The notes under the pieces are model-generated. The model was not told the DNA's origin. It worked only from the letters and a program-made list of their open reading frames with translations, and did no database searches. 64,000 nt of DNA from Candidatus Latescibacterota bacterium (GTDB lineage Bacteria; Latescibacterota; UBA2968), in the NCBI GenBank assembly GCA_965208125.1, contig OZ242320.1, forward strand, positions 2,784,001 to 2,848,000, written 5' to 3'. Numbering within the stretch: the first letter of the stretch is position 1; each line of letters begins with the position of its first letter. This document shows positions 12,319 to 25,842 of the stretch, in pieces. The position numbers and the translations under genes are program-made.

Positions 12319-12867
12319 TTGACCTCTTTGCCCAATTGCATAAAATCCGAAGCCCGATTTTGCGAGCGCTGTGGGACTTTGCTGGTTGTAAAAGCAGTTG
12401 AAGATCGGGAGAGGCCTTGTTGTCCGTCGTGTGGATTTGTGGCCTATCTCGATCCCAAGGTAGCAGCCGGGGTTATTGTAACCCTCGATGGTGGCGTTGT
12501 CCTGCTCAAGCGCAATATTGATCCCGGGTTTGGCAAGTGGGTGTTCCCCGGCGGATATGTGGATGCGGGCGAGCCTACCGATGTCGCGGCTGTGCGCGAA
12601 ACCCGCGAGGAAGTGGGGTTAGAGGTCGAGATCGGCGAGTTGCTCGGTGTGTTGTCTTATGAAGGGGAGCGGGTGGTGCTGATTGTTTATACCGGACGGG
12701 TTGTGGGCGGAAAGTTGGAAGGCAATTTTGAATCGCAGGCTGTGGCTACATTTGCCCCTCGGGATATTCCATGGAATGATCTGGCTTTTGACACAACGAG
12801 AGAGGCATTGCAAATTTGGGTGGCGCAGTATGGCGAAGTGTACGAAAAAGAAAGGTTATTATGCTGA
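12319..12867 (+). CDS. NUDIX hydrolase with N-terminal zinc ribbon
   Basis: CERCG/CPSCG cysteines and Nudix box GGYVDAGEPTDVAAVRETREEVG; TTG start. Confidence 0.9.
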   Translation: MTSLPNCIKSEARFCERCGTLLVVKAVEDRERPCCPSCGFVAYLDPKVAAGVIVTLDGGVVLLKRNIDPGFGKWVFPGGYVDAGEPTDVAAVRETREEVGLEVEIGELLGVLSYEGERVVLIVYTGRVVGGKLEGNFESQAVATFAPRDIPWNDLAFDTTREALQIWVAQYGEVYEKERLLC

Positions 12868-13772
12868 ATTCTATTGAAGATGTTGAAGAGCGGTTTGCCG
12901 AGCAGGGTTATATCACTGACCGCACATTGGCAACGACGATTTTTTTGGCACAGTCGCTTGGCAAACCAATTTTTCTGGAGGGAGAACCAGGCGTTGGAAA
13001 GACAGAAGTGGCCAAAGTTATGGCCAGTATTTTTGATACTGAATTGATTCGATTGCAGTGCTATGAAGGCATTGATGCCAATACGGCATTGTACGAGTGG
13101 AACTATCCGCGCCAGATGCTGGAGTTAAGGCTTGAAGAAGCGCAGGGGATCGACAAGGCCGAAATTGGTCAGAATATTTTTCGCGAAGATTTTTTGCTCA
13201 AGCGCCCCCTTTTGTCGGCTCTTGAGGGTAGCGCAGAAAAGCAACAGGTGTTGTTGATTGACGAAGTGGATCGGTCGGATGAAGAGTTTGAAGCGTTTTT
13301 GCTCGAAGTGTTGTCCGATTTCCAGATTACGATTCCCGAAATTGGTGCGATAAGAGCGATGCAAGTGCCGTTTGTCGTGCTTACGTCCAACCGCACGCGC
13401 GAGTTGCACGATGCACTGAAGCGCCGGTGTTTGTATTTGTGGATTGATTATCCCACGTTTAGCAAAGAAATGGATATTGTGCGGTCGCGTGTGTCGGGCG
13501 TGCAGAACGAATTGGCACAACAGGTTTGCGGGTTTATGCAATTGTTGCGCAATCGCGATTTTTACAAAAAACCCGGCGTTGCCGAAACGATTGATTGGGC
13601 GCTGGCTCTAATGGCTATGCAAGTTGACGAATTGGATCCTCAGACAGTTGATGCGACATTGGGATGCGTTTTGAAGTATAAAGAAGATATTGAAAAAATT
13701 CAGGAAGACGGCCTGCCACAACTGATTGAGAAGGCCCGATTGTTAAAAGAACGCACGCAAGTTGCCGTTTAG
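12861..13772 (+). CDS. MoxR family AAA+ ATPase (CoxD-like)
   Basis: GEPGVGKT, RLQCYEG, LLIDEVD, LHDALKRRC. Confidence 0.9.
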   Translation: MLNSIEDVEERFAEQGYITDRTLATTIFLAQSLGKPIFLEGEPGVGKTEVAKVMASIFDTELIRLQCYEGIDANTALYEWNYPRQMLELRLEEAQGIDKAEIGQNIFREDFLLKRPLLSALEGSAEKQQVLLIDEVDRSDEEFEAFLLEVLSDFQITIPEIGAIRAMQVPFVVLTSNRTRELHDALKRRCLYLWIDYPTFSKEMDIVRSRVSGVQNELAQQVCGFMQLLRNRDFYKKPGVAETIDWALALMAMQVDELDPQTVDATLGCVLKYKEDIEKIQEDGLPQLIEKARLLKERTQVAV

Positions 13773-13780
13773 GAGATTAT

Positions 13781-14917
13781 ATGCCAAGGACTATGCTGGG
13801 ACGAGTTGTCGGTTTTTCAAGGGCTTTGCACAGTGCAGGTGTTGAAGTCAATGCGGGCAATCTCATCGATTTGTGCGACAGTTTTCAATATATCAGCCTG
13901 CACAATCGAAGCGATTTTTACGCTGCTGCGCGTGCAACACTGGTGTCGCGTTACGACGATCTGGAGACTTTTGACGAGGTTTTCAGGACTTTCTGGGCGC
14001 GGCCGATTTTGCCCGACGATATGACGCTGACCGATACGGATGCTGGCGGAGATCCAGATCTCGATGTGCAGGCAGATGTCAATGAGGTGGTGGATACCGC
14101 AGATTTGCAGGAAGAGGCCGAGGGGGAGGGCGAATCCGAGGAGGTTGGGTATAGCCCCGATGAGGCCTTGATGGCGAAAGATCTGGCGGCAATGTCCGAT
14201 CGCGAGATTGAGCAGGCCCGAAAGGTGATTCACGAGATTGTGAATATTATTGCCAATCGCCGCAGTCGCAGGCGCGTGCCCGAAAATCGGGGGGCTGAAC
14301 TGGATTTCAGGCGCACATGGCGGCGCAATGCACTATATGGTTCTGATGGTGTGGAATTGATGATGAAGCGGCGGCGCATCAAAAAGACCAAGCTGATGTT
14401 GTTGTGTGATGTGAGTGGGTCTATGGATTGTTATAGCCGCTTTTTAATCCGCTTTATCTACGCGCTCAAGCGCGAAATCCGAGATGTGGAGGTCGGGGTG
14501 TTTTCCACGCGGATGACCGCGATTTCGCGGCTGCTGAAAACAAAAGGTATTGAAGAGTCACTCGTGGAAGTGGCTGATACAGTACACGACTGGGCAGGTG
14601 GAACAGATATTGGCGGGTGTTTGCGCGAGTTTAACGATCAGTTTGCGCGCGATATGTTGCACTCGCGCACTGTGATGATTATTGTGAGCGATGGCTGGGA
14701 TCGGGGTGATCCCGATTTGATGCGGCAAGAGATGGCGCGCTTGCGAAAGCGCGTGCATAAGTTGATGTGGCTCAACCCGCTTTTGGGTACGCCGGGGTAT
14801 CAGCCCCTGTGTTTGGGGATGAAGACAGCACTTCCATATCTGGATTATTTTTTGCCCGCACACAATCTGGAGAGTTTGATTCAACTTGCCCGAACACTGC
14901 GGTCTGTTTGGAAGTAG
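13781..14917 (+). CDS. VWA-domain protein (CoxE-like)
   Basis: DVSGSM MIDAS motif, WAGGTDIG, SDGWDRG, WLNPL. Confidence 0.9.
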   Translation: MPRTMLGRVVGFSRALHSAGVEVNAGNLIDLCDSFQYISLHNRSDFYAAARATLVSRYDDLETFDEVFRTFWARPILPDDMTLTDTDAGGDPDLDVQADVNEVVDTADLQEEAEGEGESEEVGYSPDEALMAKDLAAMSDREIEQARKVIHEIVNIIANRRSRRRVPENRGAELDFRRTWRRNALYGSDGVELMMKRRRIKKTKLMLLCDVSGSMDCYSRFLIRFIYALKREIRDVEVGVFSTRMTAISRLLKTKGIEESLVEVADTVHDWAGGTDIGGCLREFNDQFARDMLHSRTVMIIVSDGWDRGDPDLMRQEMARLRKRVHKLMWLNPLLGTPGYQPLCLGMKTALPYLDYFLPAHNLESLIQLARTLRSVWK

Positions 14918-14926
14918 GGGGATGTT

Positions 14927-16018
14927 ATGGCTGGTCGTGATGTTTTTCAAGAGGCACTGACTCTGATTTCTCAGGGGGAAAAGGCCGCCTTATCGACTAT
15001 TGTATCGAGTAAGGGGTCTTTGCCGATGAGCAAAAAGGCCAAGATGCTCGTGCGTCCCGATGGCGTGATTATAGGTACGGTGGGCGGCGGTTGTTTGGAA
15101 GCCGATGTGTGGGCCGAAGCCCGTCATGTGATGGAAACCGAAGCACCGACGTTGCAGAAGTTTATTTTGACGGAGAAACACGCGGGCGAAAATGGCCTCA
15201 ATTGCGGTGGCAATGTCGAGATTTTTACCGAACCTCTGCTGCCCGATCGCGCAGATGATATGCTCGCCGAGATTGCGCGAGTTCGCAAAGTGCGCGGTTC
15301 GGCTGTGTTGGCGACACTGGTTTCGGGCGGCGATCAGGTGGGTGCGAAGTTACTGGTACATCCCGATGGTAGAACAGTGGGGAGCCTGGGCCATGATCTT
15401 GCCGAAGCCTGTGTGCGCGAAGAGGTGGCGGCTTTTGAGGCGATTCCGGAGAGTTTGCTCAAAGTTATAAAGATCGGCTCGGAACCCGTTGTGGTCTTTT
15501 TGGAATCTATTTGTCCCGAACCCACGCTGTTTTTGTTTGGTGGGGGGCATGTGTCCTATGCCATTGCACAGATTGCACATTCGGTCGGGTTTCGGATTGT
15601 GGTTATTGACGACCGGCCCATGTTTGCCAACAAAGAGCGGTTTCCCATGGCGAGTGAGACGCTGACGCTGGAGATGGAGACGGCTTTTGATCATCTAATT
15701 GTTGACGATTTGTCTTATGTGGTGGCTGTGACGCGGGGACACCAGCACGACAAGCCGGTCATTGAGCAGGCAATAAATACTCAGGCGGCGTATGTCGGTA
15801 TGATTGGCAGCCGTCGCAAGATCGCATTGATGTGGAAAGAGTTTGAGGCCAAAGGCATTCCGCGAGAAAAATTGGATGCGGTTCACGCGCCGATTGGATT
15901 GGATATCGGTGCAGATACGCCCGAAGAAATCGCCGTGAGTATTGTGTCAGAACTCATTCAGGTGCGCCGGTCACAAGGGAAACCCATTCACCAGGGTATG
16001 TCGCTGTCATCGGTGTGA
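14927..16018 (+). CDS. XdhC/CoxF-CoxI family molybdoenzyme maturation factor
   Basis: GTVGGGCLE, CGG, FGGGHV, YVGMIGSRRK, APIGLDIGADTPEEIAVSI. Confidence 0.92.
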   Translation: MAGRDVFQEALTLISQGEKAALSTIVSSKGSLPMSKKAKMLVRPDGVIIGTVGGGCLEADVWAEARHVMETEAPTLQKFILTEKHAGENGLNCGGNVEIFTEPLLPDRADDMLAEIARVRKVRGSAVLATLVSGGDQVGAKLLVHPDGRTVGSLGHDLAEACVREEVAAFEAIPESLLKVIKIGSEPVVVFLESICPEPTLFLFGGGHVSYAIAQIAHSVGFRIVVIDDRPMFANKERFPMASETLTLEMETAFDHLIVDDLSYVVAVTRGHQHDKPVIEQAINTQAAYVGMIGSRRKIALMWKEFEAKGIPREKLDAVHAPIGLDIGADTPEEIAVSIVSELIQVRRSQGKPIHQGMSLSSV

Positions 16019-16039: not shown

Positions 16040-18319
16040 ATGGAGAGAGATCAGGCCCTGAAAAGTTTTTTCAAAATATGTTGTGGCGTGATGCTATCTA
16101 CAATTCTGACGTTGGCTTCGATGAGCGTGAGCACGGTTGGTATTGCGCTGGCAGCGGCGCCCTCGCAAAAGCCACGGCTGGGTAAAGTTAGCTTTGATCA
16201 AGTGATCGATGTGAACAATATCGCGATGTTTGTGACCAATCAGGGATCGTTTGCCTGGAATCTGACGACTGGATATTCGGGTCTTGAATTTCCCAAGGGC
16301 ACGTACGGGCAAACTGCGGTCTTTGCCGCGGGACCGTGGATTGCGGGCAAGGTCAATGGCGAGATTCGCGTGGCGATTGCCGAGTATTCATTTGAGTTTG
16401 CGCCCGGGCCTATTTTGCCCGATGGCACACCCGCTGACCCACAACTCGACCGCTATCGCGTGTATAAGATCAACAAAGGCGATGGTCCGGAAAATCCGGA
16501 TTACGCGCAGTGGCCGGTTGAAGACGGTGCGCCAGTTAATCCCGACGGTACGCCAATGGTGCTGGGTGATCAGACCCTGTGGGCGGTGTATAACGATGCC
16601 GATCCCGGCGTTCACGTCAATATGCAGACCGCGCCTTTGGGCATTGAAATACAGCAGACGACATTTGGGTTTGACCGCACAGATCCACTTGGCAATGTGG
16701 TATTCATCAAATTTTTAATCATCAACAAGGGTGGTAATACCATCGACAGCACGTATGTGTCGCTGTGGTCTGATCCCGATCTGGGGCAGTTAGATAACGA
16801 CCTGGTGGGTTGTGATGTGGAGACCAGCTTTGGGTTTTGTTATAACGGATCGAATACAGACTCGCAGTATGGTTCGTCACCTCCAGCCGTGGGGTATGAC
16901 TTTTTTAAGGGTCCGATTGGCGATGACGGTGTGGAATTGCCGATGACGTCGTTTAACAAATATATCAACGGTACCGATCCATACACCGCAGAACAGGTCT
17001 ATAACTATATGAAGGGCCTTGATCCAGATGGCGGTGTGGCTCTGCACACTGATCCGATTACGGGTCAGGTGAAGGCATTTATGGTCGATGGCGATCCGGT
17101 TGCGGGTACGGGCTGGCTTGACGAAAATCCGGCTGACCGGCGTTTGATGCTCACGGCGGGTCCATTTACCTTCGCACCTGGCGATACGCAGGAAGTGGTG
17201 GTGGGGATTATTATGGGTCAAGGTCAAGATCGTCTCACGTCGATTACGGCTGTGCGGGTTAACGATACGTTTGCACAATCGGCTTTTGATGCCGATTTTG
17301 TTGTATTTCCTCCGCCTCCGCCTCCGTCTCCTCCGACGCCTCCGCCCCCTCCGCCCCCACCTCCTGTTGGTATAAAGGATTGGGATATTCCATCGGGCGG
17401 GCGCTGGTACACCTGGGCAAATACCGATTGGGGGGCCGAAGGCTTCGGTGGTGCAATGACGGGCGATATTGCCCATCAATGGTTTGGCCCGACGAGTGTG
17501 CCACCTTCGCGCTTGGTCAATGTGGAATTGCGATTTACCAGTGTGATTGAAGATGAAGGCGAAGATCAGTACAAACCCATTGACTTGACCAATCCCAATG
17601 TGTCGTGGGGATATCGGTATTTGCGCAGCGCAGGTGCTCCTGCTCCTGCACCGGCAGATCAGACGACTACAAAATCACCTTATGACTGGAGCAATTATAT
17701 CATCAATACATCGGGTCCCGGTGAATATGTGTATCAGGAGCGCAATCCAATCGCGCTTTCGGCCTGGGATGTTGAAAATAACCGCCGTCTCGAAGTGGGT
17801 TGGCTGGAAAACAATCAGCCCGGCGGCCTGGTCAATGGTGCGTATGGTCCGGCCTATTACAACGATGTGAGCAATCTGGCGACCAGTGGACCGCGCGAGT
17901 GGCTGTTCATTTTTGATCGGGATTATACCGAGCCGGATGATGATTCCAATTTGGCGGAGTTGTCACAGGGCTTGATCAACGACAACCCGGCGCCGCCCAT
18001 TATGTATATCATTTTTGCTGCGCGCCGTATCGCGGATCGGTTTCCGCAGGATGGCGATTCGTTTTTGATTCTGGTCAATCGCGTCAACGACACCAATCCC
18101 GGCGATTTTAATGGCGATGGCACGATTAACTTTTCCGATTTTCTTTTGTTCATTGTGGCTTTTGGTACAGGTTCAGGAGATGCAGGTTTCGATGCTCAGA
18201 TGGATCTCAATGGCGATGGCATGATTGACTTTTCCGATTTTCTGATCTTTGTCGGTCATTATGGGAGTGGTACCTCTGGTTCGAAGGCCGCGCTGCCACT
18301 GCCCTTTCCCTATAGGTAA
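16040..18319 (+). CDS. Secreted protein, paralogue of 21455..24577, with poly-Pro linker and C-terminal EF-hand/dockerin-like tail
   Basis: Signal peptide; two blocks nearly identical to the downstream gene; PPPPPPSPPTPPPPPPPP linker; duplicated DxNGDGxIxFSDFL Ca-binding motifs; start could be 16091. Confidence 0.8.
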   Translation: MERDQALKSFFKICCGVMLSTILTLASMSVSTVGIALAAAPSQKPRLGKVSFDQVIDVNNIAMFVTNQGSFAWNLTTGYSGLEFPKGTYGQTAVFAAGPWIAGKVNGEIRVAIAEYSFEFAPGPILPDGTPADPQLDRYRVYKINKGDGPENPDYAQWPVEDGAPVNPDGTPMVLGDQTLWAVYNDADPGVHVNMQTAPLGIEIQQTTFGFDRTDPLGNVVFIKFLIINKGGNTIDSTYVSLWSDPDLGQLDNDLVGCDVETSFGFCYNGSNTDSQYGSSPPAVGYDFFKGPIGDDGVELPMTSFNKYINGTDPYTAEQVYNYMKGLDPDGGVALHTDPITGQVKAFMVDGDPVAGTGWLDENPADRRLMLTAGPFTFAPGDTQEVVVGIIMGQGQDRLTSITAVRVNDTFAQSAFDADFVVFPPPPPPSPPTPPPPPPPPPVGIKDWDIPSGGRWYTWANTDWGAEGFGGAMTGDIAHQWFGPTSVPPSRLVNVELRFTSVIEDEGEDQYKPIDLTNPNVSWGYRYLRSAGAPAPAPADQTTTKSPYDWSNYIINTSGPGEYVYQERNPIALSAWDVENNRRLEVGWLENNQPGGLVNGAYGPAYYNDVSNLATSGPREWLFIFDRDYTEPDDDSNLAELSQGLINDNPAPPIMYIIFAARRIADRFPQDGDSFLILVNRVNDTNPGDFNGDGTINFSDFLLFIVAFGTGSGDAGFDAQMDLNGDGMIDFSDFLIFVGHYGSGTSGSKAALPLPFPYR
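16103..17300 (+). repeat. Long direct repeat A, copy 1 (about 1.2 kb)
   Basis: Co-linear with 21473..22667; mostly synonymous differences and one 3-nt indel by eye. Confidence 0.9.
17309..17365 (+). repeat. CCN-codon low-complexity tract (poly-proline)
   Basis: cctccgcctccgcctccgtctcctccgacgcctccgccccctccgcccccacctcct. Confidence 0.9.
17369..18079 (+). repeat. Long direct repeat B, copy 1 (about 0.7 kb)
   Basis: Co-linear with 23462..24181; near-identical framework interrupted by divergent segments. Confidence 0.85.
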
Positions 18320-18550
18320 AAATTGGAACAACAAGTATGGAGGCCATTATGTCATCTGGTTGTGAGTTGTCTTTATGAGAGATTTATGCAAGTGAGGTTC
18401 GGCAAGAACTTTCACAATGGTTTACTGTCGGGGGAGAACAAGGAGGTGATGCAAGCGACATAGTTGTAAACGATTTACGTGAGGGGGGAAGAATGAGAGG
18501 CGCGTGTCTTTAAGTCTGGTTTTCGAAATTATTTCAGAAGGGAGTTAACC

Positions 18551-21439
18551 ATGACAAGATGGATAATCGCACTTGTTGCGATGTCGTTTTTATCCGCATC
18601 GGCGATGGCCGGGGTGACGGGTAAAATTGTGGGTCAGGTTGTTGACAAAGATGACGGTGGTAGTTTGCCCGGTGCCAATGTGGTGGTTCTGGGCTTGCAC
18701 AGTGTCTTTGGTGCGACATCCGATACCGAAGGTAATTTTGTGATTTTGAATGTGCCAGCAGGCACTTTTGACGTAAAATGCAGCTTTATCGGGTATCAAG
18801 ACGTGGTGCTCAAGGGCATCAAGGTGTTACCCGATTTGACTACGGAAGTAGATTTTGTGCTTACAGCACAGGCTCTGGAAGGCGAAACTATTGAAGTGGT
18901 GGCGGAGCGTCCGCTGGTGCAGAAAGACAAGACCAGCTCGATGCGCCTCGTAACCAGCGAAGAACTCGAGTATATGCCGGTTCGCGGGTATGCAGCGGCC
19001 ACGTCCTTGCAGGCGGGTGTGACGAATCGGAACGGCTCTCTTTACATACGCGGTGGGCGGTTTTCAGAAGTTGACTACATTGTCGATGGCGTATCGCAGA
19101 AGAATTTGCAGTATGGCTCATCGACCACGGCCCTGAGCAATGGTGCTATAGATCAGGTATCCGTGATTGTGGGTGGGTTTGAAGCGGAGTATGGGCGCGT
19201 GATGTCGGGCGTTGTCAAGGTGGTGACGCGCGAAGGCGGGCAGAACTATTCGGGGTCTGTGGAACACATCACCGATGAGTGGAATGACCGCAGTTGGGCC
19301 GGTGCGCCCTCTTATGGGTATAACACTACCGAAGCGACACTGGGTGGTCCACTCATTCCCGGGACGAACGGGCCTTCGTTTTTTGTCTCTGGAGACCGCG
19401 TCGATCGCCTCGACCGCAGTCCGCGCTGGGGTGTGGAAGCCCACGAGTGGGAAAAAGACCTTTTGCCAAAGGAAGATTACGATCTGCTCAGCGAGGGCAT
19501 ATTGCCGCATTATACGCTCGACAGCTGGAGCTGGCAGGGCAAACTGGCGTATCGATTGTCCGACGAAATCGATCTGAAAGCAGGGATTATAGGCTCAAAA
19601 TATGATCGCTTGAGCTATAGTCACTCATATCGCTATAATTTGCGGCATGCGCCGCGTGCCAAAAGCAATAACTATTCGGCGTTTGCTCGCGTGACCTACA
19701 CGCTCGGAGCAAAGACCTTCTTCACCTTGCAAACAAGTATGTTCGATCAGAATTTCAAGGCGGGTGACGGGGTTCATTTCGACAATTTGCACGACTATGC
19801 CCGTCCCCAGGGCAATCCGCGTTATGACGCGGAAAGTTTGTTTGCCCGCGGCGATGTGGATTCCACCGAGATTACGCGGACAACGGAAACCATCAATGAT
19901 CGCTCTATAACGTATTTTGAAGGCGATGAAGGGCGCATATATAATAGCTTTACGCAAAGCAGTTCATTTTATCTCACGCCTATCGACTTTGATTTGACCA
20001 GTCAGGTCAGCCGCAATCACCAGTTCAAGCTCGGTTTTGACGTGCAGATGCATCGGTTGCGTTATTATCGTCATCTGGTCCCCAGTTTGATCTTTCGCGG
20101 TCCATTCGTCAGCACAGACGACAGGGGTGGCTTTCAGGATGTAGATCGCTACGGGTATGATTACAACTGGAATAAACAGGGCATTGAGCCTCTGGATTCT
20201 ACCCGCGACGCGCAAAAAGAACCCATTTTGGCCTCGTTTTACGTGCAGGACAAGATGGAATACGACGGTTTGATCATCAATGCGGGCGTGCGATACGATT
20301 ATTTGAATGCGAGTACCGATGTGCTGGCGAATGAAGGCGTGCCACTGGGTGGCGATTCGACATTGGATCCATCGGATCTGGCTGGCAACAGCGTGTATCA
20401 CAAGATCAGCCCGCGTCTGGGCGTTGGATTTCCCGTTACAGATAAGACCGTGTTTCACATGAACTACGGTATTTTTTATCAGCAACCCAAGCTGGAAGAC
20501 CTGTATGTTGGTCTGGATTATCTGGAATACAAAGCGCCACTGGGGGGATATTATTACGCTTTTGGCAATCCGAATCTCAGACCGGAAAAAACCACGGCTT
20601 ATGAAGTGGGTGTGGTGCAGCAGGTGGGTGACCATGCCAGTGTCGATGTGACGGCGTATTACAAAGCCGTGGAAAACCTCGTCCAGGTGACGACAATTCC
20701 GTCTGATCCCGTGGCTTTTGCCTCGTTCCGCAACAACGACTACGGAACCATTAAGGGGCTGGACTTTGGTTTGCTAATGCGTCGCATAGGGCGCACAACA
20801 GCACGCATCTCTTATTCACTGGCTTATGCGACGGGCACGGGATCATCGCCACAAACCCAGCGGCGGATCGCCTGGAGCTTCCAACCCGGCGTGACCGAGC
20901 CGCCCAAATCGACCTCACCGCTCGACTTTGATCAACGCCACAAAATTTCGGCATCGATCGACTATCGCTTTGTAGATAAAGACGGCCCGAGGTTCCTGGG
21001 CGGTCAGCCGCTGTCCAATGCCGGGATCAATGTGTTGTTCACAGCCGGGAGTGGATTCCCCTATACCCCCACGTTTACGTTTAATGAAGTGACTACAGGG
21101 GCTTCGGCGTCACGTCCTTCGGGACCGGTGAATTCCAGCTATGGTCCCTGGACATTCAGGACTGATGTGAAGGCGAATAAGCGTTTCAAAATTATAGGAC
21201 TTCAGGGTGACATATACGTATGGGTGCTCAATTTGCTCAACCGCGCCAACGCAACCAGTCCCGTGTATTCGAGCACGGGTAGCCCAATGACTTCGGGCTG
21301 GTTGAATACAGCTGAAGGCCGCAAATTTGTGGAGCGCTTTGGTCAACTGGGCGAAGACAAATACAAGCTCAAAGAGAACAGCCCATTCAACTTTGGCACG
21401 CCGCGGCAGGTTCGCTTCGGACTCGCGCTCAGCTTCTAA
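18551..21439 (+). CDS. TonB-dependent receptor with N-terminal carboxypeptidase-regulatory-like domain
   Basis: GKIVGQVVD...LPGANV, YIRGGR plug motif, GGFEAEYG, GNPNLRPEKT, C-terminal PRQVRFGLALSF. Confidence 0.92.
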   Translation: MTRWIIALVAMSFLSASAMAGVTGKIVGQVVDKDDGGSLPGANVVVLGLHSVFGATSDTEGNFVILNVPAGTFDVKCSFIGYQDVVLKGIKVLPDLTTEVDFVLTAQALEGETIEVVAERPLVQKDKTSSMRLVTSEELEYMPVRGYAAATSLQAGVTNRNGSLYIRGGRFSEVDYIVDGVSQKNLQYGSSTTALSNGAIDQVSVIVGGFEAEYGRVMSGVVKVVTREGGQNYSGSVEHITDEWNDRSWAGAPSYGYNTTEATLGGPLIPGTNGPSFFVSGDRVDRLDRSPRWGVEAHEWEKDLLPKEDYDLLSEGILPHYTLDSWSWQGKLAYRLSDEIDLKAGIIGSKYDRLSYSHSYRYNLRHAPRAKSNNYSAFARVTYTLGAKTFFTLQTSMFDQNFKAGDGVHFDNLHDYARPQGNPRYDAESLFARGDVDSTEITRTTETINDRSITYFEGDEGRIYNSFTQSSSFYLTPIDFDLTSQVSRNHQFKLGFDVQMHRLRYYRHLVPSLIFRGPFVSTDDRGGFQDVDRYGYDYNWNKQGIEPLDSTRDAQKEPILASFYVQDKMEYDGLIINAGVRYDYLNASTDVLANEGVPLGGDSTLDPSDLAGNSVYHKISPRLGVGFPVTDKTVFHMNYGIFYQQPKLEDLYVGLDYLEYKAPLGGYYYAFGNPNLRPEKTTAYEVGVVQQVGDHASVDVTAYYKAVENLVQVTTIPSDPVAFASFRNNDYGTIKGLDFGLLMRRIGRTTARISYSLAYATGTGSSPQTQRRIAWSFQPGVTEPPKSTSPLDFDQRHKISASIDYRFVDKDGPRFLGGQPLSNAGINVLFTAGSGFPYTPTFTFNEVTTGASASRPSGPVNSSYGPWTFRTDVKANKRFKIIGLQGDIYVWVLNLLNRANATSPVYSSTGSPMTSGWLNTAEGRKFVERFGQLGEDKYKLKENSPFNFGTPRQVRFGLALSF

Positions 21440-21454
21440 ATGGGAGGTTAGAAC

Positions 21455-24400
21455 ATGAAAAGCTTTTTGAATATTCTGACGCTGGCTTTGATGAGCGTGA
21501 GCATGGCTGGCATTGCGCTGGCTGTATCGCCCTCGCAAAAGCCGCGATTGGGTAAAATTAGCAATGATCAAGTGATTGATGTGAACAATATCTCAATGTT
21601 TGTGACCAACCAGGGATCATTTGCCTGGGATCTGGCGACCGGGGCTTCGGGTCTTGAATATCCCAAGGGCACGGGCAAAACCGCGGTATTTGCCTCCGGT
21701 CCGTGGATTGCGGGGAAGGTCAATGGAGAGATTCGGGTGGCGATTGCCGAGTATTCATTTGAGTATGCGCCCGGGCCGATTTTGCCCGATGGCACACCCG
21801 CCGATCCGCAACTCGACCGCTATCGGGTGTATAAGATCAGCAGAGGTGATGGCCCGGAAAACCCGGATTATGCGCAGTGGCCGGTTGAAGACGGCGCGCC
21901 GGTCAATCCCGACGGTACGCCGATGGTGCTGGGCGATCAGACCCTGTGGGCGGTGTATAACGATGCCGATCCCGGCGTCCACGCCAATATGCAGACCGCA
22001 CCTTTGGGCGTTGAAATACAGCAGACGACATTTGCGTTCGACCGCACAGGTCCTCTTGGCAATGTGGTGTTCATCAAATTTTTGATCATCAACAAGGGTG
22101 GCAATACCATCGATAGCACGTATGTGTCGCTGTGGTCTGATCCCGATCTGGGTCAGTTCGATAACGACCTGGTGGGCTGCGATGTTGAGACCAGCTTTGG
22201 GTTTTGTTATAACGGGTCAAATGTAGATGCGCAGTACGGTTCGTCACCTCCAGTCGTGGGATATGACTTTTTCAAGGGTCCGATTGGCGATGACGGTGTG
22301 GAATTGCCGATGACGTCGTTTAACAAATATATCAACGGCACGGATCCTCAAACCGCAGAAGAGACCTTTAATTATATGAAGGGCCTTGATCCGGATGGCG
22401 GCGTTGCCGATCACACCGATCCAATTACAGGTCAGGTGAAGGCATTTATGGTCGATGGAGATCCGGTTACGGGCGCGGGCTGGCTTGACGAAAATCCGGC
22501 TGATCGCCGCTTTATGCTCACGGCGGGTCCGTTTACCTTTGCGCCCGGCGATACGCAGGAAGTGGTGGGCGCCATTATTATAGGTCAAGGTCAAGATCGT
22601 CTCACGTCGATTACAGCCGCGCGTTTTAACGATACATTTGCACAATCGGCTTTTGATGCCAATTTTGAATTGCCATCGCCTCCGCCTGCACCCAAAGTAT
22701 CCGTGGGGATAACAGGGGATCACGGAGGCAATGGTAGAATTCAGTTGACCTGGGGTAGTGACTCAGAAGTTGCCTCGGGCGATTATGCATTCGAAGGTTA
22801 TAACGTGTACCAGGGCGAGTCGGTTGCTGGTCCCTGGAGGCGTCTTGTGACTTATGACGTGGTCAATGGCTCGGCCATTATTTTTGACAGTCAGTTCGAT
22901 GAAGGTGCCGGTGTGGTGATCAACTCGCCCGTGCAATTTGGCGGCGACTCGGGTATTCGGCGCTTTATTGAACTCACCGAGGATAAGGTTTTGGGTGGTC
23001 GTCTGGTGACGGGTAAAACCTATTATTTTGCAGTGACGGCCTATTCGTTGAATGAGAGCAGGTCGCCAAAAACGCTCGAGACATCCATCACACCTCTGGC
23101 CGATGGGCGCATGACGTTTAAGCCCCTTTCGGATGAGATGATTCCGGCCAATGGCATTGTGCCGCGCGGACCCACTGCGGGTACGCGCTTCAATACCGTG
23201 GGTGTGGATAGTGTTGTTGAACACACATCGGGTGTAAGCGATGGTATTGTGGCTGTGGAGGTGGTTGACGATACACGGGTCACGGGCGCGTCTTACGAAG
23301 TGCGCTTCCGCGATACCGAGGCCGGAACGGTTTGGGATCTGATCAATCTGTCGAGTGGTCAGGCCGTGCTTTCAGATATGCAGCAGCACGCAAATATAGA
23401 TGATGCGATTACCAATCCAATTGTCGAGGGTTTGCTCGTGCGCGTTACCGGTCCTCCCCTTGGCATGAAAGATTGGGATATTCCATCGGGTGAGCGGTGG
23501 ATGACGTGGTTTCATACCAGTCCCTATTTGGCTGGTTTTTCTACTGAAGGCTTCGGAGGTGCGATAACGGGCGATGTTGCCCATAGTTGGTTTGGTCCCA
23601 CGAGCGTGTCACCTTCGCAGTTGGTCAATGTGGAATTGCGATTTACCAGTGTGATTGAGGATGATGGCGAAGATCAGTACAAACCCCTCGACCTGACCAA
23701 TCCCAATGTGTCGTGGGGATATCGGTATTTGCGCGCCGCGGGCAGACCTGCACCTGCTCCCGAAGAACTAACCCTGTCCCATGTGCCTTATGACTGGAGT
23801 GATTACATCGTCAATACAGAAGGTCCCGGTGTTTATGTGTATCAAGACCGGAGGCCCATTGCACTGTCTGCATGGGATGTTGAAAATAATCGGCGCCTTG
23901 AAGTGGGCTGGCTGGAAAACAATCTGGCCGGTGGCCTGGTCAATGGAGCCTGGGGACCGCCACTTGGTGACGATGTGCCCCATACGTTTGTCGCCCGTGA
24001 GTGGCTGTTCATTTTTGATCGGGATTATACCGAGCGGAACGATGATTCCAATTTGGCGGAGTTGTCTCAGGGCTTGATCAACGATGCGCCGGCACCGCCC
24101 ATTATGTATATCCTTTTTGTTAATCGCCGCACGGCAGATCGTTTCCCGCAGGATGGCGATTCATTTTTGATGATCGCCAATAAAATCAATACCCCCAACG
24201 ATGTGTTTTTATTTAACACGCAGGGGACTCTCCGCGGTGATCAGGAGTTGGCGGTGGAGGATTTGACAAAAATTCTGGCGGTGCCCAATCCGTATCTGGG
24301 GCGTTCGTCTTATGAATTTAACTCTCTTGCACGCCAGATGCGTTTTACCAATCTTCCCGCGCAGTGTACGATCCGAATTTTCAGTCTGTCGGGCGATCTG

Positions 24401-24577
24401 GTGCGAACGATTGAGCACAATAACGGTCTGTCGTTTGATACCTGGGATCTAAAAACAGATCAGGGCGTGCTGGTTGCCAGCGGCATTTATATCGCGCATT
24501 TTGACGCGCCAAATATCGGTACGCATTTTATCAAGTGCGCGGTGTTCATGGAAGCTGAGACGCTGAACACATTTTAA
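21455..24577 (+). CDS. Secreted protein with FnIII-like middle region and T9SS-type C-terminal sorting domain
   Basis: Signal peptide; IQLTW...FEGYNVY...YYFAVTAY; tail AVPNPY...FTNLP...IRIFSLSGDLVRTI...WDLKT...VASGIYI. Confidence 0.85.
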   Translation: MKSFLNILTLALMSVSMAGIALAVSPSQKPRLGKISNDQVIDVNNISMFVTNQGSFAWDLATGASGLEYPKGTGKTAVFASGPWIAGKVNGEIRVAIAEYSFEYAPGPILPDGTPADPQLDRYRVYKISRGDGPENPDYAQWPVEDGAPVNPDGTPMVLGDQTLWAVYNDADPGVHANMQTAPLGVEIQQTTFAFDRTGPLGNVVFIKFLIINKGGNTIDSTYVSLWSDPDLGQFDNDLVGCDVETSFGFCYNGSNVDAQYGSSPPVVGYDFFKGPIGDDGVELPMTSFNKYINGTDPQTAEETFNYMKGLDPDGGVADHTDPITGQVKAFMVDGDPVTGAGWLDENPADRRFMLTAGPFTFAPGDTQEVVGAIIIGQGQDRLTSITAARFNDTFAQSAFDANFELPSPPPAPKVSVGITGDHGGNGRIQLTWGSDSEVASGDYAFEGYNVYQGESVAGPWRRLVTYDVVNGSAIIFDSQFDEGAGVVINSPVQFGGDSGIRRFIELTEDKVLGGRLVTGKTYYFAVTAYSLNESRSPKTLETSITPLADGRMTFKPLSDEMIPANGIVPRGPTAGTRFNTVGVDSVVEHTSGVSDGIVAVEVVDDTRVTGASYEVRFRDTEAGTVWDLINLSSGQAVLSDMQQHANIDDAITNPIVEGLLVRVTGPPLGMKDWDIPSGERWMTWFHTSPYLAGFSTEGFGGAITGDVAHSWFGPTSVSPSQLVNVELRFTSVIEDDGEDQYKPLDLTNPNVSWGYRYLRAAGRPAPAPEELTLSHVPYDWSDYIVNTEGPGVYVYQDRRPIALSAWDVENNRRLEVGWLENNLAGGLVNGAWGPPLGDDVPHTFVAREWLFIFDRDYTERNDDSNLAELSQGLINDAPAPPIMYILFVNRRTADRFPQDGDSFLMIANKINTPNDVFLFNTQGTLRGDQELAVEDLTKILAVPNPYLGRSSYEFNSLARQMRFTNLPAQCTIRIFSLSGDLVRTIEHNNGLSFDTWDLKTDQGVLVASGIYIAHFDAPNIGTHFIKCAVFMEAETLNTF
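21473..22667 (+). repeat. Long direct repeat A, copy 2
   Basis: Matches 16103..17300. Confidence 0.9.
23462..24181 (+). repeat. Long direct repeat B, copy 2
   Basis: Matches 17369..18079. Confidence 0.85.
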
Positions 24578-24603
24578 CGAACCGCTGAATGGAGGAATAA
24601 CTT

Positions 24604-25659
24604 ATGTTCAGGCAGATGATTTTTCTGTTTGCCGCGCTGGCATTGATCGTTCAGGATGCCCGTGCAGGCGATGAGAGCCGTATCGGCACAGCCGCAGCAC
24701 AAGAGTTGCGCATTCCAATTGGTTCGCGCGGTACAGCACTTGGAGGCGCCATACTGGCTCATGTAAAAGGTGCGGAGGCATTGCAGTGGAATCCTTCGGG
24801 ATTGGTATTTGGAACGCACAAACGCGAAGTCTTGTTTTCATATCTGGATTATATTGCAGATATGAATGTGAACTATTTTGCGATTACCACGCGTCTGCGC
24901 GATGATATTTCGGTGGGGATCAGTGCCCGTGCGTTAGCAGTGGGCGATATTATTGTGACGACCGAGGAATCGCCCGAAGGTACGGGTGAGATACTCTCTC
25001 CGAGGTTTTCGTGTGTGACATTTACGTATTCGCAATTGTTGACAGATCGCGTGTCGTTTGGCACTACGATTAAATATATCCACGAGGCGATTAAGCGAGA
25101 GGTTGCCAATGGCCTGGCGTTTGATTTTGGTTTCCAGTACAAAACCGCACTCAAAGGTTTAACGCTGGGTATTGCTATGCGCAACTATGGTCCAGACATG
25201 CGGTTTGATGGTCCGGATCTGGATCGGGTGGTGAGATTGCAAGACGCGATTCCAGAGGCTGATCCCCAAGCCGGGTCGCGCACTTTCCGCACGTCACTGG
25301 CATCTGCGGAGTTGCCCACGTCCATAGAAATCGGTTTTTCCTATGCTTTCTATGAAGACGCGCTGGGCAAAGCTGCTTTTTCTGCGACCTTCCGCAATAA
25401 CAATCTGGCGACTGACGAGTATCAGGCTGGCGTTGAGTATTCGATGAAGCAAATTCTTCAGTTGCGCGGAGGGTATGTGACGTCTCCAACCGGTGATGCC
25501 CTGCCCAACGGGTTTAAGAAGGAATATATTCTCGGTCCGACGTTTGGGTTTGGTCTCAATGTGCCTATGGGCAATATGGCTTTTCAAGTGGATTATGCCT
25601 ATGGCAGAACTGAGTACTTTCAGGATAATCACTGGGTGACTGTGGGGCTTGGGTTTTAG
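24604..25659 (+). CDS. PorV/PorQ family outer-membrane beta-barrel
   Basis: GTAAAQELRIPIGSRGTALGG, WNPSGL, FDFGFQY, C-terminal Phe. Confidence 0.85.
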   Translation: MFRQMIFLFAALALIVQDARAGDESRIGTAAAQELRIPIGSRGTALGGAILAHVKGAEALQWNPSGLVFGTHKREVLFSYLDYIADMNVNYFAITTRLRDDISVGISARALAVGDIIVTTEESPEGTGEILSPRFSCVTFTYSQLLTDRVSFGTTIKYIHEAIKREVANGLAFDFGFQYKTALKGLTLGIAMRNYGPDMRFDGPDLDRVVRLQDAIPEADPQAGSRTFRTSLASAELPTSIEIGFSYAFYEDALGKAAFSATFRNNNLATDEYQAGVEYSMKQILQLRGGYVTSPTGDALPNGFKKEYILGPTFGFGLNVPMGNMAFQVDYAYGRTEYFQDNHWVTVGLGF

Positions 25660-25730
25660 AAGTGTGAAGTATGAAGTGTGAAGTATGAAGGGTGGCCTTC
25701 TCTTCTAACTTCTCACTTCTTTCTTCTCAT
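25659..25730. repeat. Heptamer tandem repeat with a partially complementary pyrimidine tract
   Basis: (GAAGTGT GAAGTAT)x2 GAAGGGT followed by CTTCT-containing repeats. Confidence 0.75.
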
Positions 25731-25740
25731 AGGTGTATTT

Positions 25741-25785
25741 AACCGCCTGCATTGGTTTTTATTACCAATGTCAGGCGGTTTTTTT
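25741..25785 (+). terminator. Rho-independent terminator of the receptor operon
   Basis: AACCGCCTG-CATTGGT...ACCAATG-T-CAGGCGGTT plus T-run. Confidence 0.8.
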
Positions 25786-25842
25786 CTTCTTTGAAAATCC
25801 TATTTATATAAAAAACAATAAGATAGGGTCTGAAGAGTGTTT

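Follow-up and report, generated by a model that had tools for sequence, protein, structure and literature searches.

The stretch of DNA analysed here (the window) comprises 64,000 nucleotides of contig OZ242320.1 (assembly GCA_965208125.1, positions 2,784,001 to 2,848,000) from a Candidatus Latescibacterota bacterium, the genome of which is a single contig of 5.75 Mb. It contains a unit of three adjacent genes: (i) a TonB-dependent receptor (TBDR); (ii) a secreted protein of 1040 amino acids (P1040), the tail of which resembles type IX secretion system (T9SS) C-terminal domains (CTDs); (iii) an outer-membrane barrel of the PorV/PorQ family. With a probability of roughly 0.55, this triad is a TonB-powered uptake unit independent of SusD, in which P1040 would be held by a private barrel as PorZ is held by PorQ. 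The inheritance of the unit, the exclusive CTD subtype and the contact of tail and barrel in a model are computed. The export route, the retention of the CTD, the contact with the TBDR, the capture function and the substrate are what we infer.

The window unit (T08) is one of 15 triads of the genome (T01-T15), a point missed by an earlier note on this DNA. Eighteen open reading frames (ORFs) of the genome are above the PorV/PorQ-family cut-off, and 15 of these encode the barrel that closes a unit in which a TBDR and a middle protein come first. The best PorV-family match of the genome (231.8 bits) lies outside any triad. All 15 TBDRs belong to a single paralogous group. The middle proteins other than P1040 (14 proteins, 694-914 residues, that of T10 being in pieces) form one family, which is unrelated to P1040 save for the tail. 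P1040 has a Sec signal peptide and, like the 14 other middle proteins, no lipobox, thus another anchor is needed.

The tail is the part common to all triads. The last ~90 residues of the 14 other middle proteins are alike to those of P1040 (hhalign probability 99%, E 3.7e-18). A hidden Markov model (HMM) of the triad-type CTD was run on the whole genome, in which ordinary CTD proteins also exist: 14 middle proteins score 98-143 bits, the broken T10 scores 38 bits, and the next ORF is at 26 bits. Since this HMM matches only the 15 middle proteins, the tail is a dedicated subtype, in a one-to-one relation with the extra barrels. The AlphaFold2 (AF2) model of P1040 places seven strands over residues 941-1030, and the tail contains a VPNPY motif. 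The architecture given for type A CTDs is a 3+4 sandwich (excerpts of PMC11285876). Of the partial profile matches of the tail, the best are to PorZ (E 6e-6) and PorU, at their C-termini. PF13860 was found in 6 of the 120 P1040 relatives listed.

The barrel passes the cut-off of the PorV/PorQ family (NF033709, 170.4 bits vs. 90) and is under those of the equivalog models, i.e., PorV (70 vs. 250), PorQ (83 vs. 220) and PorV2 (60 vs. 325). The profile built from its orthologues matches the solved PorV of Flavobacterium johnsoniae (6h3i_F, E 4.6e-20). Residues 23-351 of the barrel were modelled together with residues 928-1040 of P1040, with a separate alignment for each chain and with three unrelated proteins as controls. 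The ipSAE values of the complex are 0.88, 0.87 and 0.87 (median 0.87) vs. 0.00 for the best of the three controls; 58 of 80 solved complexes attain the mark used for this score, as do 2 of 110 mismatched pairs. The pLDDT of the partner is at least 79 and at least 88% of the contacts are common between runs. In the model, the loop 111-126 and the mature N-terminus of the barrel contact the VPNPY motif and the last strands of the tail. The P1040 tail is thus predicted to sit on the extracellular loops of the neighbouring barrel.

The conservation of this interface was also considered. Among orthologues, 15 of the 27 conserved columns of the CTD are at the interface, which comprises 42 of its 113 residues (p 0.02); for the barrel, these values are 13 of 54 conserved columns and 51 of 329 residues (p 0.049). 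Conserved columns are thus modestly enriched at the interface. Among the paralogous barrels of the genome, interface positions show no more conservation than other positions (0.40 vs. 0.46), which is compatible with a pairing specific to each paralogue and is no proof of it.

The unit is conserved well beyond this genome. The earlier note called for a survey of such triads across genomes of the FCB group (Fibrobacteres-Chlorobi-Bacteroidetes), and the loci compared here bear out the triad. In a collection of species-representative genomes, 355 of the 376 candidate stretches encode a relative of P1040, and 79 loci were kept. In 78 of the 79 loci, the gene just upstream, on the same strand, encodes a TBDR, and in 76 the gene just downstream encodes a PorV-family barrel; the four missing neighbours are all at contig ends. 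The adjacency of TBDR, P1040 and barrel is far beyond chance. The phylum labels of these loci are Latescibacterota, Zixibacteria, Eisenbacteria, Gemmatimonadota and Ignavibacteria, plus two oddly labelled bins. At E<=1e-20, P1040 has matches in 97 of 168 genomes of the phylum and in all 20 genomes of the genus, a few of these being the tail alone. One Latescibacterota genome of 8.4 Mb (L102:5962-9099) has a P1040 homologue, a TBDR and a barrel that are each split over several frames, i.e., either a decaying triad or a faulty assembly.

The three genes have also diverged together, as a co-phylogeny proposed in the same note would have it. For the paralogues of the genome, Mantel correlations are 0.88 (TBDR and barrel), 0.71 (TBDR and CTD) and 0.75 (barrel and CTD), and 0 of 5000 permutations were as high. 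In the barrel tree (38 rows) and in the TBDR tree (37 rows), triads of the P1040 type are parted from those of the other type by a single branch, with a Shimodaira-Hasegawa-like approximate likelihood ratio test (SH-aLRT) value of 100 and 0 of 500 shuffles as low in each case. The barrel and the TBDR of the window cluster with P1040-type triads of other phyla, apart from the 14 paralogues of their own genome. Both trees split by partner type; taken with the correlations, this shows that triads have been inherited and duplicated as whole units and that both lineages are old.

The TBDR passes the cut-offs of the plug domain (PF07715, 30.3 bits vs. 23.9) and of the barrel domain (PF00593, 90.6 bits vs. 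27). Its N-terminus is made of a signal peptide followed by a CarboxypepD_reg domain above the Pfam cut-off, and PF25183 is also matched. Residues ~112-120 resemble a TonB box: E-[LI]-x-V-[VIT]-A-E-R-P is found in 15 of the 15 paralogues of the genome. No model named after SusC or RagA occurs among the 16 NCBIfam families that match the TBDR at E<=0.01. Family searches found no SusD-like lipoprotein in the locus, in line with the earlier note. In the whole genome, PF14322 has no match and PF07980 has a single weak one, elsewhere (31 bits, with an internal TAG), the Bacteroides control being positive for both.

P1040 belongs to a large family that has no annotation; of 7999 scored candidates, 1695 protein clusters match at E<=1e-3. 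Its members have ~1000 residues and ~40% identity over their full length. The Pfam search of P1040 gave no match, the search of PDB sequences with the family profile gave nothing at E<=0.01, and the protein atlas search returned only unnamed clusters. The AF2 model of P1040 has a mean pLDDT of 80.1 and a pTM of 0.62. Residues 34-405, i.e., the best conserved region of the family, with invariant columns, are folded as a beta-supersandwich. Structure comparison gives VIA Z values of 17-19.5, with a root mean square deviation (rmsd) of 3.0-3.6 A over 230-270 aligned residues. The counterparts are the non-catalytic N-domains of GH15 enzymes (glucoamylase, glucodextranase), GH116 glucosidase, GH94/GH65 phosphorylases and dextran dextrinase. 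The catalytic (alpha/alpha)6 domain is absent after the supersandwich of P1040. This modelled fold hints at sugar binding by P1040.

Residues 556-932 folded alone have a pLDDT of 81.8. A FlgK/FlgL subdomain was considered for the fold of this region and rejected, as the best match (VIA Z 9.4) covers only 87-91 residues and is too small. A Foldseek match of P1040 to PorZ (5m11) was also discarded, the alignment being unusable (rmsd 31 A). One relative carries a P1040 form of 834 residues (G038:C19:5426-7543), in which the head, the C-domain and the tail are kept and the middle modules are missing; thus the insert at residues 415-666 is dispensable in nature.

The head of P1040 also occurs on another anchor. 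P759, encoded upstream of the TBDR, has 89% identity with P1040 over 409 residues (N-terminal) and 72% over 265 residues (C-domain). It is made of a supersandwich domain, a Pro-rich linker, the common C-domain and a type I dockerin (residues ~687-744; PF00404, 33.9 bits vs. a cut-off of 22.9, passed), and it lacks both P1040 residues ~415-666 and the CTD. The earlier note had described a second copy of the surface protein at this place; the identity shows a real paralogue, and the note missed that the tail is a dockerin and that the CTD is absent. P759 is an insertion, present in this genome and in one other among the 22 close loci compared, and contigs from RNA libraries of relatives run from XdhC (16018) straight to the region before the TBDR (18416) with P759 missing. 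Judged from these loci, the insertion is recent. The C-domain of P759 (17360-18130) has 72% identity with that of P1040 (23453-24235) and 85-89% with P1040 homologues of sister species. It resembles these homologues more than its neighbour P1040, which suggests transfer or recombination over simple local duplication.

Cohesins that could receive such a dockerin occur elsewhere in the genome. PF00963 modules stand directly before ordinary T9SS CTDs in three of the four cohesin ORFs, and dockerins are found on ~78 other ORFs. From these sequences, the genome looks like it encodes a cohesin-dockerin display system anchored by the T9SS. The cohesin proteins with a CTD are the likely dock for P759.

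The sister triads have neighbours of their own. DUF6785/DUF6784 membrane proteins (~660 residues) follow the barrel in 8 of the 15 triad loci. Two loci, T11 and T12, were scanned for families: sulfatases, a ceramidase-like protein, a protein of the phosphotriesterase family and a SulP permease were found. In 9 of the 15 triads, the TBDR is immediately preceded by a small outer-membrane beta-barrel gene (~240 residues, e.g., L024:506-1216). Its product has weak PF13505 and TIGR04565 matches, it is missing from the window copy, and it is possibly a fourth component. The middle gene of T10 (L023, G000:C1:3063700-3065750) is divided into ORFs of 399 and 215 residues, with an ORF of the opposite strand across them; T10 is probably a decaying copy.

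The coordinates of the features are given in the table. The gaps between the TBDR and P1040 (21440-21454) and between P1040 and the barrel (24578-24603) are of 15 and 26 nucleotides only. The terminator is a hairpin (25741-25780) followed by U7, with a folding energy of -25.9 kcal/mol (z -7.8, 0 of 200 shuffles equal). The four ORFs, their close spacing and the shared terminator had been noted before, and both the coordinates and the hairpin are borne out. The window triad is flanked by CoxD/CoxE/XdhC-like maturation genes on one side and by pspA on the other. The upstream operon (12816-16018) encodes a MoxR-like AAA ATPase, a CoxE-like VWA protein and a maturation factor of the XdhC family, and its synteny with the triad is kept within the genus.

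Table. Features of the window triad, and related ORFs found outside the window
Feature	Coordinates	Strand	Basis
P759, surface-protein paralogue with dockerin	16040-18319	+	ORF
TonB-dependent receptor (TBDR), 962 residues	18551-21439	+	ORF, Pfam domains
P1040, secreted partner protein, 1040 residues	21455-24577	+	ORF
P1040 N-terminal beta-supersandwich (residues 34-405)	21554-22669	+	AF2 model
P1040 beta-sandwich modules (residues ~415-666)	22697-23452	+	AF2 model; no counterpart in P759
P1040 C-domain common with P759 (residues ~667-927)	23453-24235	+	Sequence comparison
Triad-type C-terminal domain of P1040 (residues ~935-1040)	24257-24577	+	HMM, AF2, complex model
PorV/PorQ-family outer-membrane barrel, 351 residues, signal peptide	24604-25659	+	NF033709
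Intrinsic terminator, hairpin and U-run	25741-25787	+	Folding energy vs. shuffles
DUF6785/DUF6784 copies	L024:7661-9649, L024:12423-14516 and 8 further copies		Pfam families
Cohesin and CTD ORFs (outside the window)	G000:C1:2266947-2271767, 2271846-2278310, 4832074-4832880		PF00963

The following mechanism is proposed. P1040 would cross the inner membrane by the Sec pathway and then the outer membrane via the T9SS translocon. Its CTD would not be cut and would stay plugged on its own barrel, like the CTD of PorZ on PorQ and that of PorU on PorV. Such a retention has a precedent, since the CTDs of PorZ and PorU remain on PorQ and PorV, and 'cognate PorV-like barrels' have been proposed in a review to protect CTDs (both in excerpts of PMC10202324). 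The pair of barrel and P1040 would be positioned beside the TBDR. The supersandwich domain would capture the substrate, probably a glycan, and pass it to the TBDR, thus taking the place of SusD. P759 would present the same head on another anchor, i.e., the cohesin modules of T9SS-anchored proteins. Such a swap of anchor would be expected if the head acted at the surface and the tail only fixed it there. By analogy, the direction of import leans on the TonB-box-like motif and on the importer and hydrolase genes of the sister loci.

Several points weigh against this uptake unit. As regards function, family searches found no linked importer or enzyme genes at the window triad, so that for this copy both the substrate and the direction of transport would be drawn by analogy from the 14 sister loci. 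A common fold of the P1040 head shows no function. Among the genes that flank 58 distant P1040-type loci, sorted into clusters, five recurrent neighbours were scanned: four have no Pfam match, one is NlpC/P60, and none gives a substrate clue. Linked genes share their history, and co-divergence therefore means joint inheritance, not contact; the contact between the TBDR and P1040 is putative. RNA libraries of four studies have contigs (90-99% identity) over the TBDR, P1040 and the barrel that also extend across the two junctions between these genes, and one of 7.6 kb spans from XdhC into the barrel gene, but such contigs cannot prove transcription, its level or its strand, as these libraries may hold DNA.

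As regards anchoring, solved complexes include Flavobacterium PorV with both translocon and substrates (6h3i, 8gl6 and others), and the complex score may reflect likeness to them. Controls made with unrelated proteins do not address the private character of the pairing, which stays putative. The private anchor of the earlier note has computational support (exclusive CTD subtype, co-divergence, conserved triad, complex model, SprA and a PorU-like protein in the genome), the specificity of the pairing being outside the reach of the controls. For the other half of that idea, a capture lid next to the receptor, the functional hint is the supersandwich fold, and this role is putative. The tail reaches only 19.6 bits with the type A sorting domain model (TIGR04183), under the cut-off of 23. 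Its earlier description as a T9SS-like CTD is right as to the seven strands and the likeness to PorZ and PorU, with the reserve that this CTD is atypical.

As regards export, the earlier note had asked for the core T9SS genes, and the answer is mixed. SprA is present (641 bits summed), and a PorU-like protein of 1905 residues has matches of 265 and 80 bits, under the cut-off of 420. For GldK, only partial matches to the C-terminal domain, which is sulfatase-maturase-like, were obtained, and the best one has no operon after it; this candidate was rejected. GldL, GldM and GldN were not found in the genome, in searches that the control genomes did not validate. The export of P1040 by the T9SS is thus not secured.

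Other explanations were considered for the same data. P1040 may be a T9SS cargo of the ordinary kind, served by a dedicated shuttle: the barrel would only ferry it from SprA to the sortase, the CTD would be cut, and P1040 would be released or tied to lipopolysaccharide as an adhesin or an enzyme, the TBDR being linked for co-regulation only. PorV is indeed the shuttle of the accepted model (excerpts of PMC10202324), and the genome encodes SprA and a PorU-like protein. Nevertheless, co-regulation alone leaves unexplained both the adjacency kept in 78 of 79 loci and the agreement, from one phylum to the next, between TBDR lineage and partner type. By profile, the CTD is nearest to those of PorZ and PorU, which are retained, and not to the general sorting-domain model, and a genome that has a general PorV-like protein (that of 231.8 bits) would not need 15 more shuttles. 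This explanation is unlikely, though it is the best placed of the three considered here.

The triad could also be an export unit, in which the TBDR would work outward like Oar of Myxococcus and carry P1040 across the outer membrane, the barrel then holding it. This is improbable, as the inner-membrane DUF6785 proteins at 8 of the 15 loci and the hydrolases at T11 and T12 fit import, and SprA is present in the genome. The CarboxypepD_reg N-domain and the PF25183 match of the TBDR would suit it, Oar itself presumably having a layout of this type, and so would the lack of matches to the T9SS motor genes GldL, GldM and GldN (in searches not validated by controls). The need of a TBDR for protein secretion is on record, i.e., Oar for the protease PopC (excerpts of PMC6434023). 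Finally, instead of anchoring the CTD, the barrel might form a FadL-type channel or serve the TBDR as a platform for assembly, as BamG does for BamA/BamH (excerpts of PMC12578637). This is very improbable: the complex model sets the CTD on the barrel (0.87 vs. 0.00 for the controls), and the CTD subtype and the barrels are one-to-one, even if PorV-family barrels are homologues of FadL and weak matches to TodX (E 4.5e-4) and BamG (E 8e-4, 18.5 bits vs. 250) are found.

The uptake unit proposed here was compared with known systems. The pairs PorZ-PorQ and PorU-PorV of Porphyromonas gingivalis share with it a retained C-terminal beta-sandwich and a hold at the surface by a PorV/PorQ-family barrel (excerpts of PMC10202324), both of which are predicted for the triad. 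The triad differs from them since the pair stands beside a TBDR and occurs 15 times in a single genome, what it displays is no component of the secretion machinery, and the barrel is under the PorV and PorQ cut-offs. Type B CTD systems differ from the triad by another class of CTD and another family of barrel, and they have no TBDR. They resemble it in that, in Flavobacterium johnsoniae, the gene of a cargo-specific barrel (PorP/SprF-like) lies beside that of the cargo (excerpts of PMC10202324).

In the SusC/SusD (RagA/RagB) pairs of Bacteroidota, as in the triad, a TBDR stands beside a surface partner in nutrient-utilisation loci (here T11 and T12, with sulfatases, hydrolases and transporters). 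The triad has neither a SusD fold nor a lipid anchor, its partner is of 700-1040 residues, and a third protein would hold this partner. Oar/PopC of Myxococcus xanthus is another case of a TBDR functionally tied to a secreted protein (excerpts of PMC6434023); its direction is export, and it contains no CTD and no PorV-like barrel. The BamG-BamH pair of the Bacteroidota beta-barrel assembly machinery (BAM) is also unlike the triad, since BamH is a lipoprotein, BamG binds BamA, and the triad barrel matches BamG weakly.

The literature search, which covered papers and not their supplements, found none on a gene unit made of a TBDR, a CTD protein and a PorV-like barrel. The parts of the triad are of known kinds, their combination is not. 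What is new here is (i) the 15-fold expansion, the two partner families on one tail subtype and the split of the trees by partner type; (ii) the controlled complex model, the supersandwich head and the natural anchor swap on a dockerin.

A wider proposal is only tentative and should be held with less confidence than the uptake unit itself. FCB bacteria outside Bacteroidota may have a third way to provide TonB-dependent transporters with a partner, i.e., a secreted protein fixed by a specialised CTD as plug and by a private barrel of the PorV family as socket. The barrel would be at first the extractor at SprA and then the permanent socket. This joint would be ancient, with at least two lineages, each having its own TBDR, barrel and partner, that predate or cross phyla. 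The heads would be swappable, and the T9SS may work in this case without a GldKLMN motor.

What is understood of TonB-dependent uptake with a surface partner comes almost entirely from the SusC/SusD pairs that Bacteroidota have. To our knowledge, Latescibacterota, Zixibacteria, Eisenbacteria, Gemmatimonadota and Ignavibacteria, which are abundant in sediments, soils and sponges, have no SusD. If the triad is the equivalent of the SusD pair, it would explain how these five phyla capture polymers. It would also give a role to thousands of 'hypothetical' proteins of 700-1400 residues and to many extra PorV-like barrels, and parts of the T9SS would then be reused as a general surface-anchoring joint. 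This genome lends itself well to tests of the idea: the triad occurs in 15 paralogous copies, with two families of partner, and the anchor has been swapped naturally.

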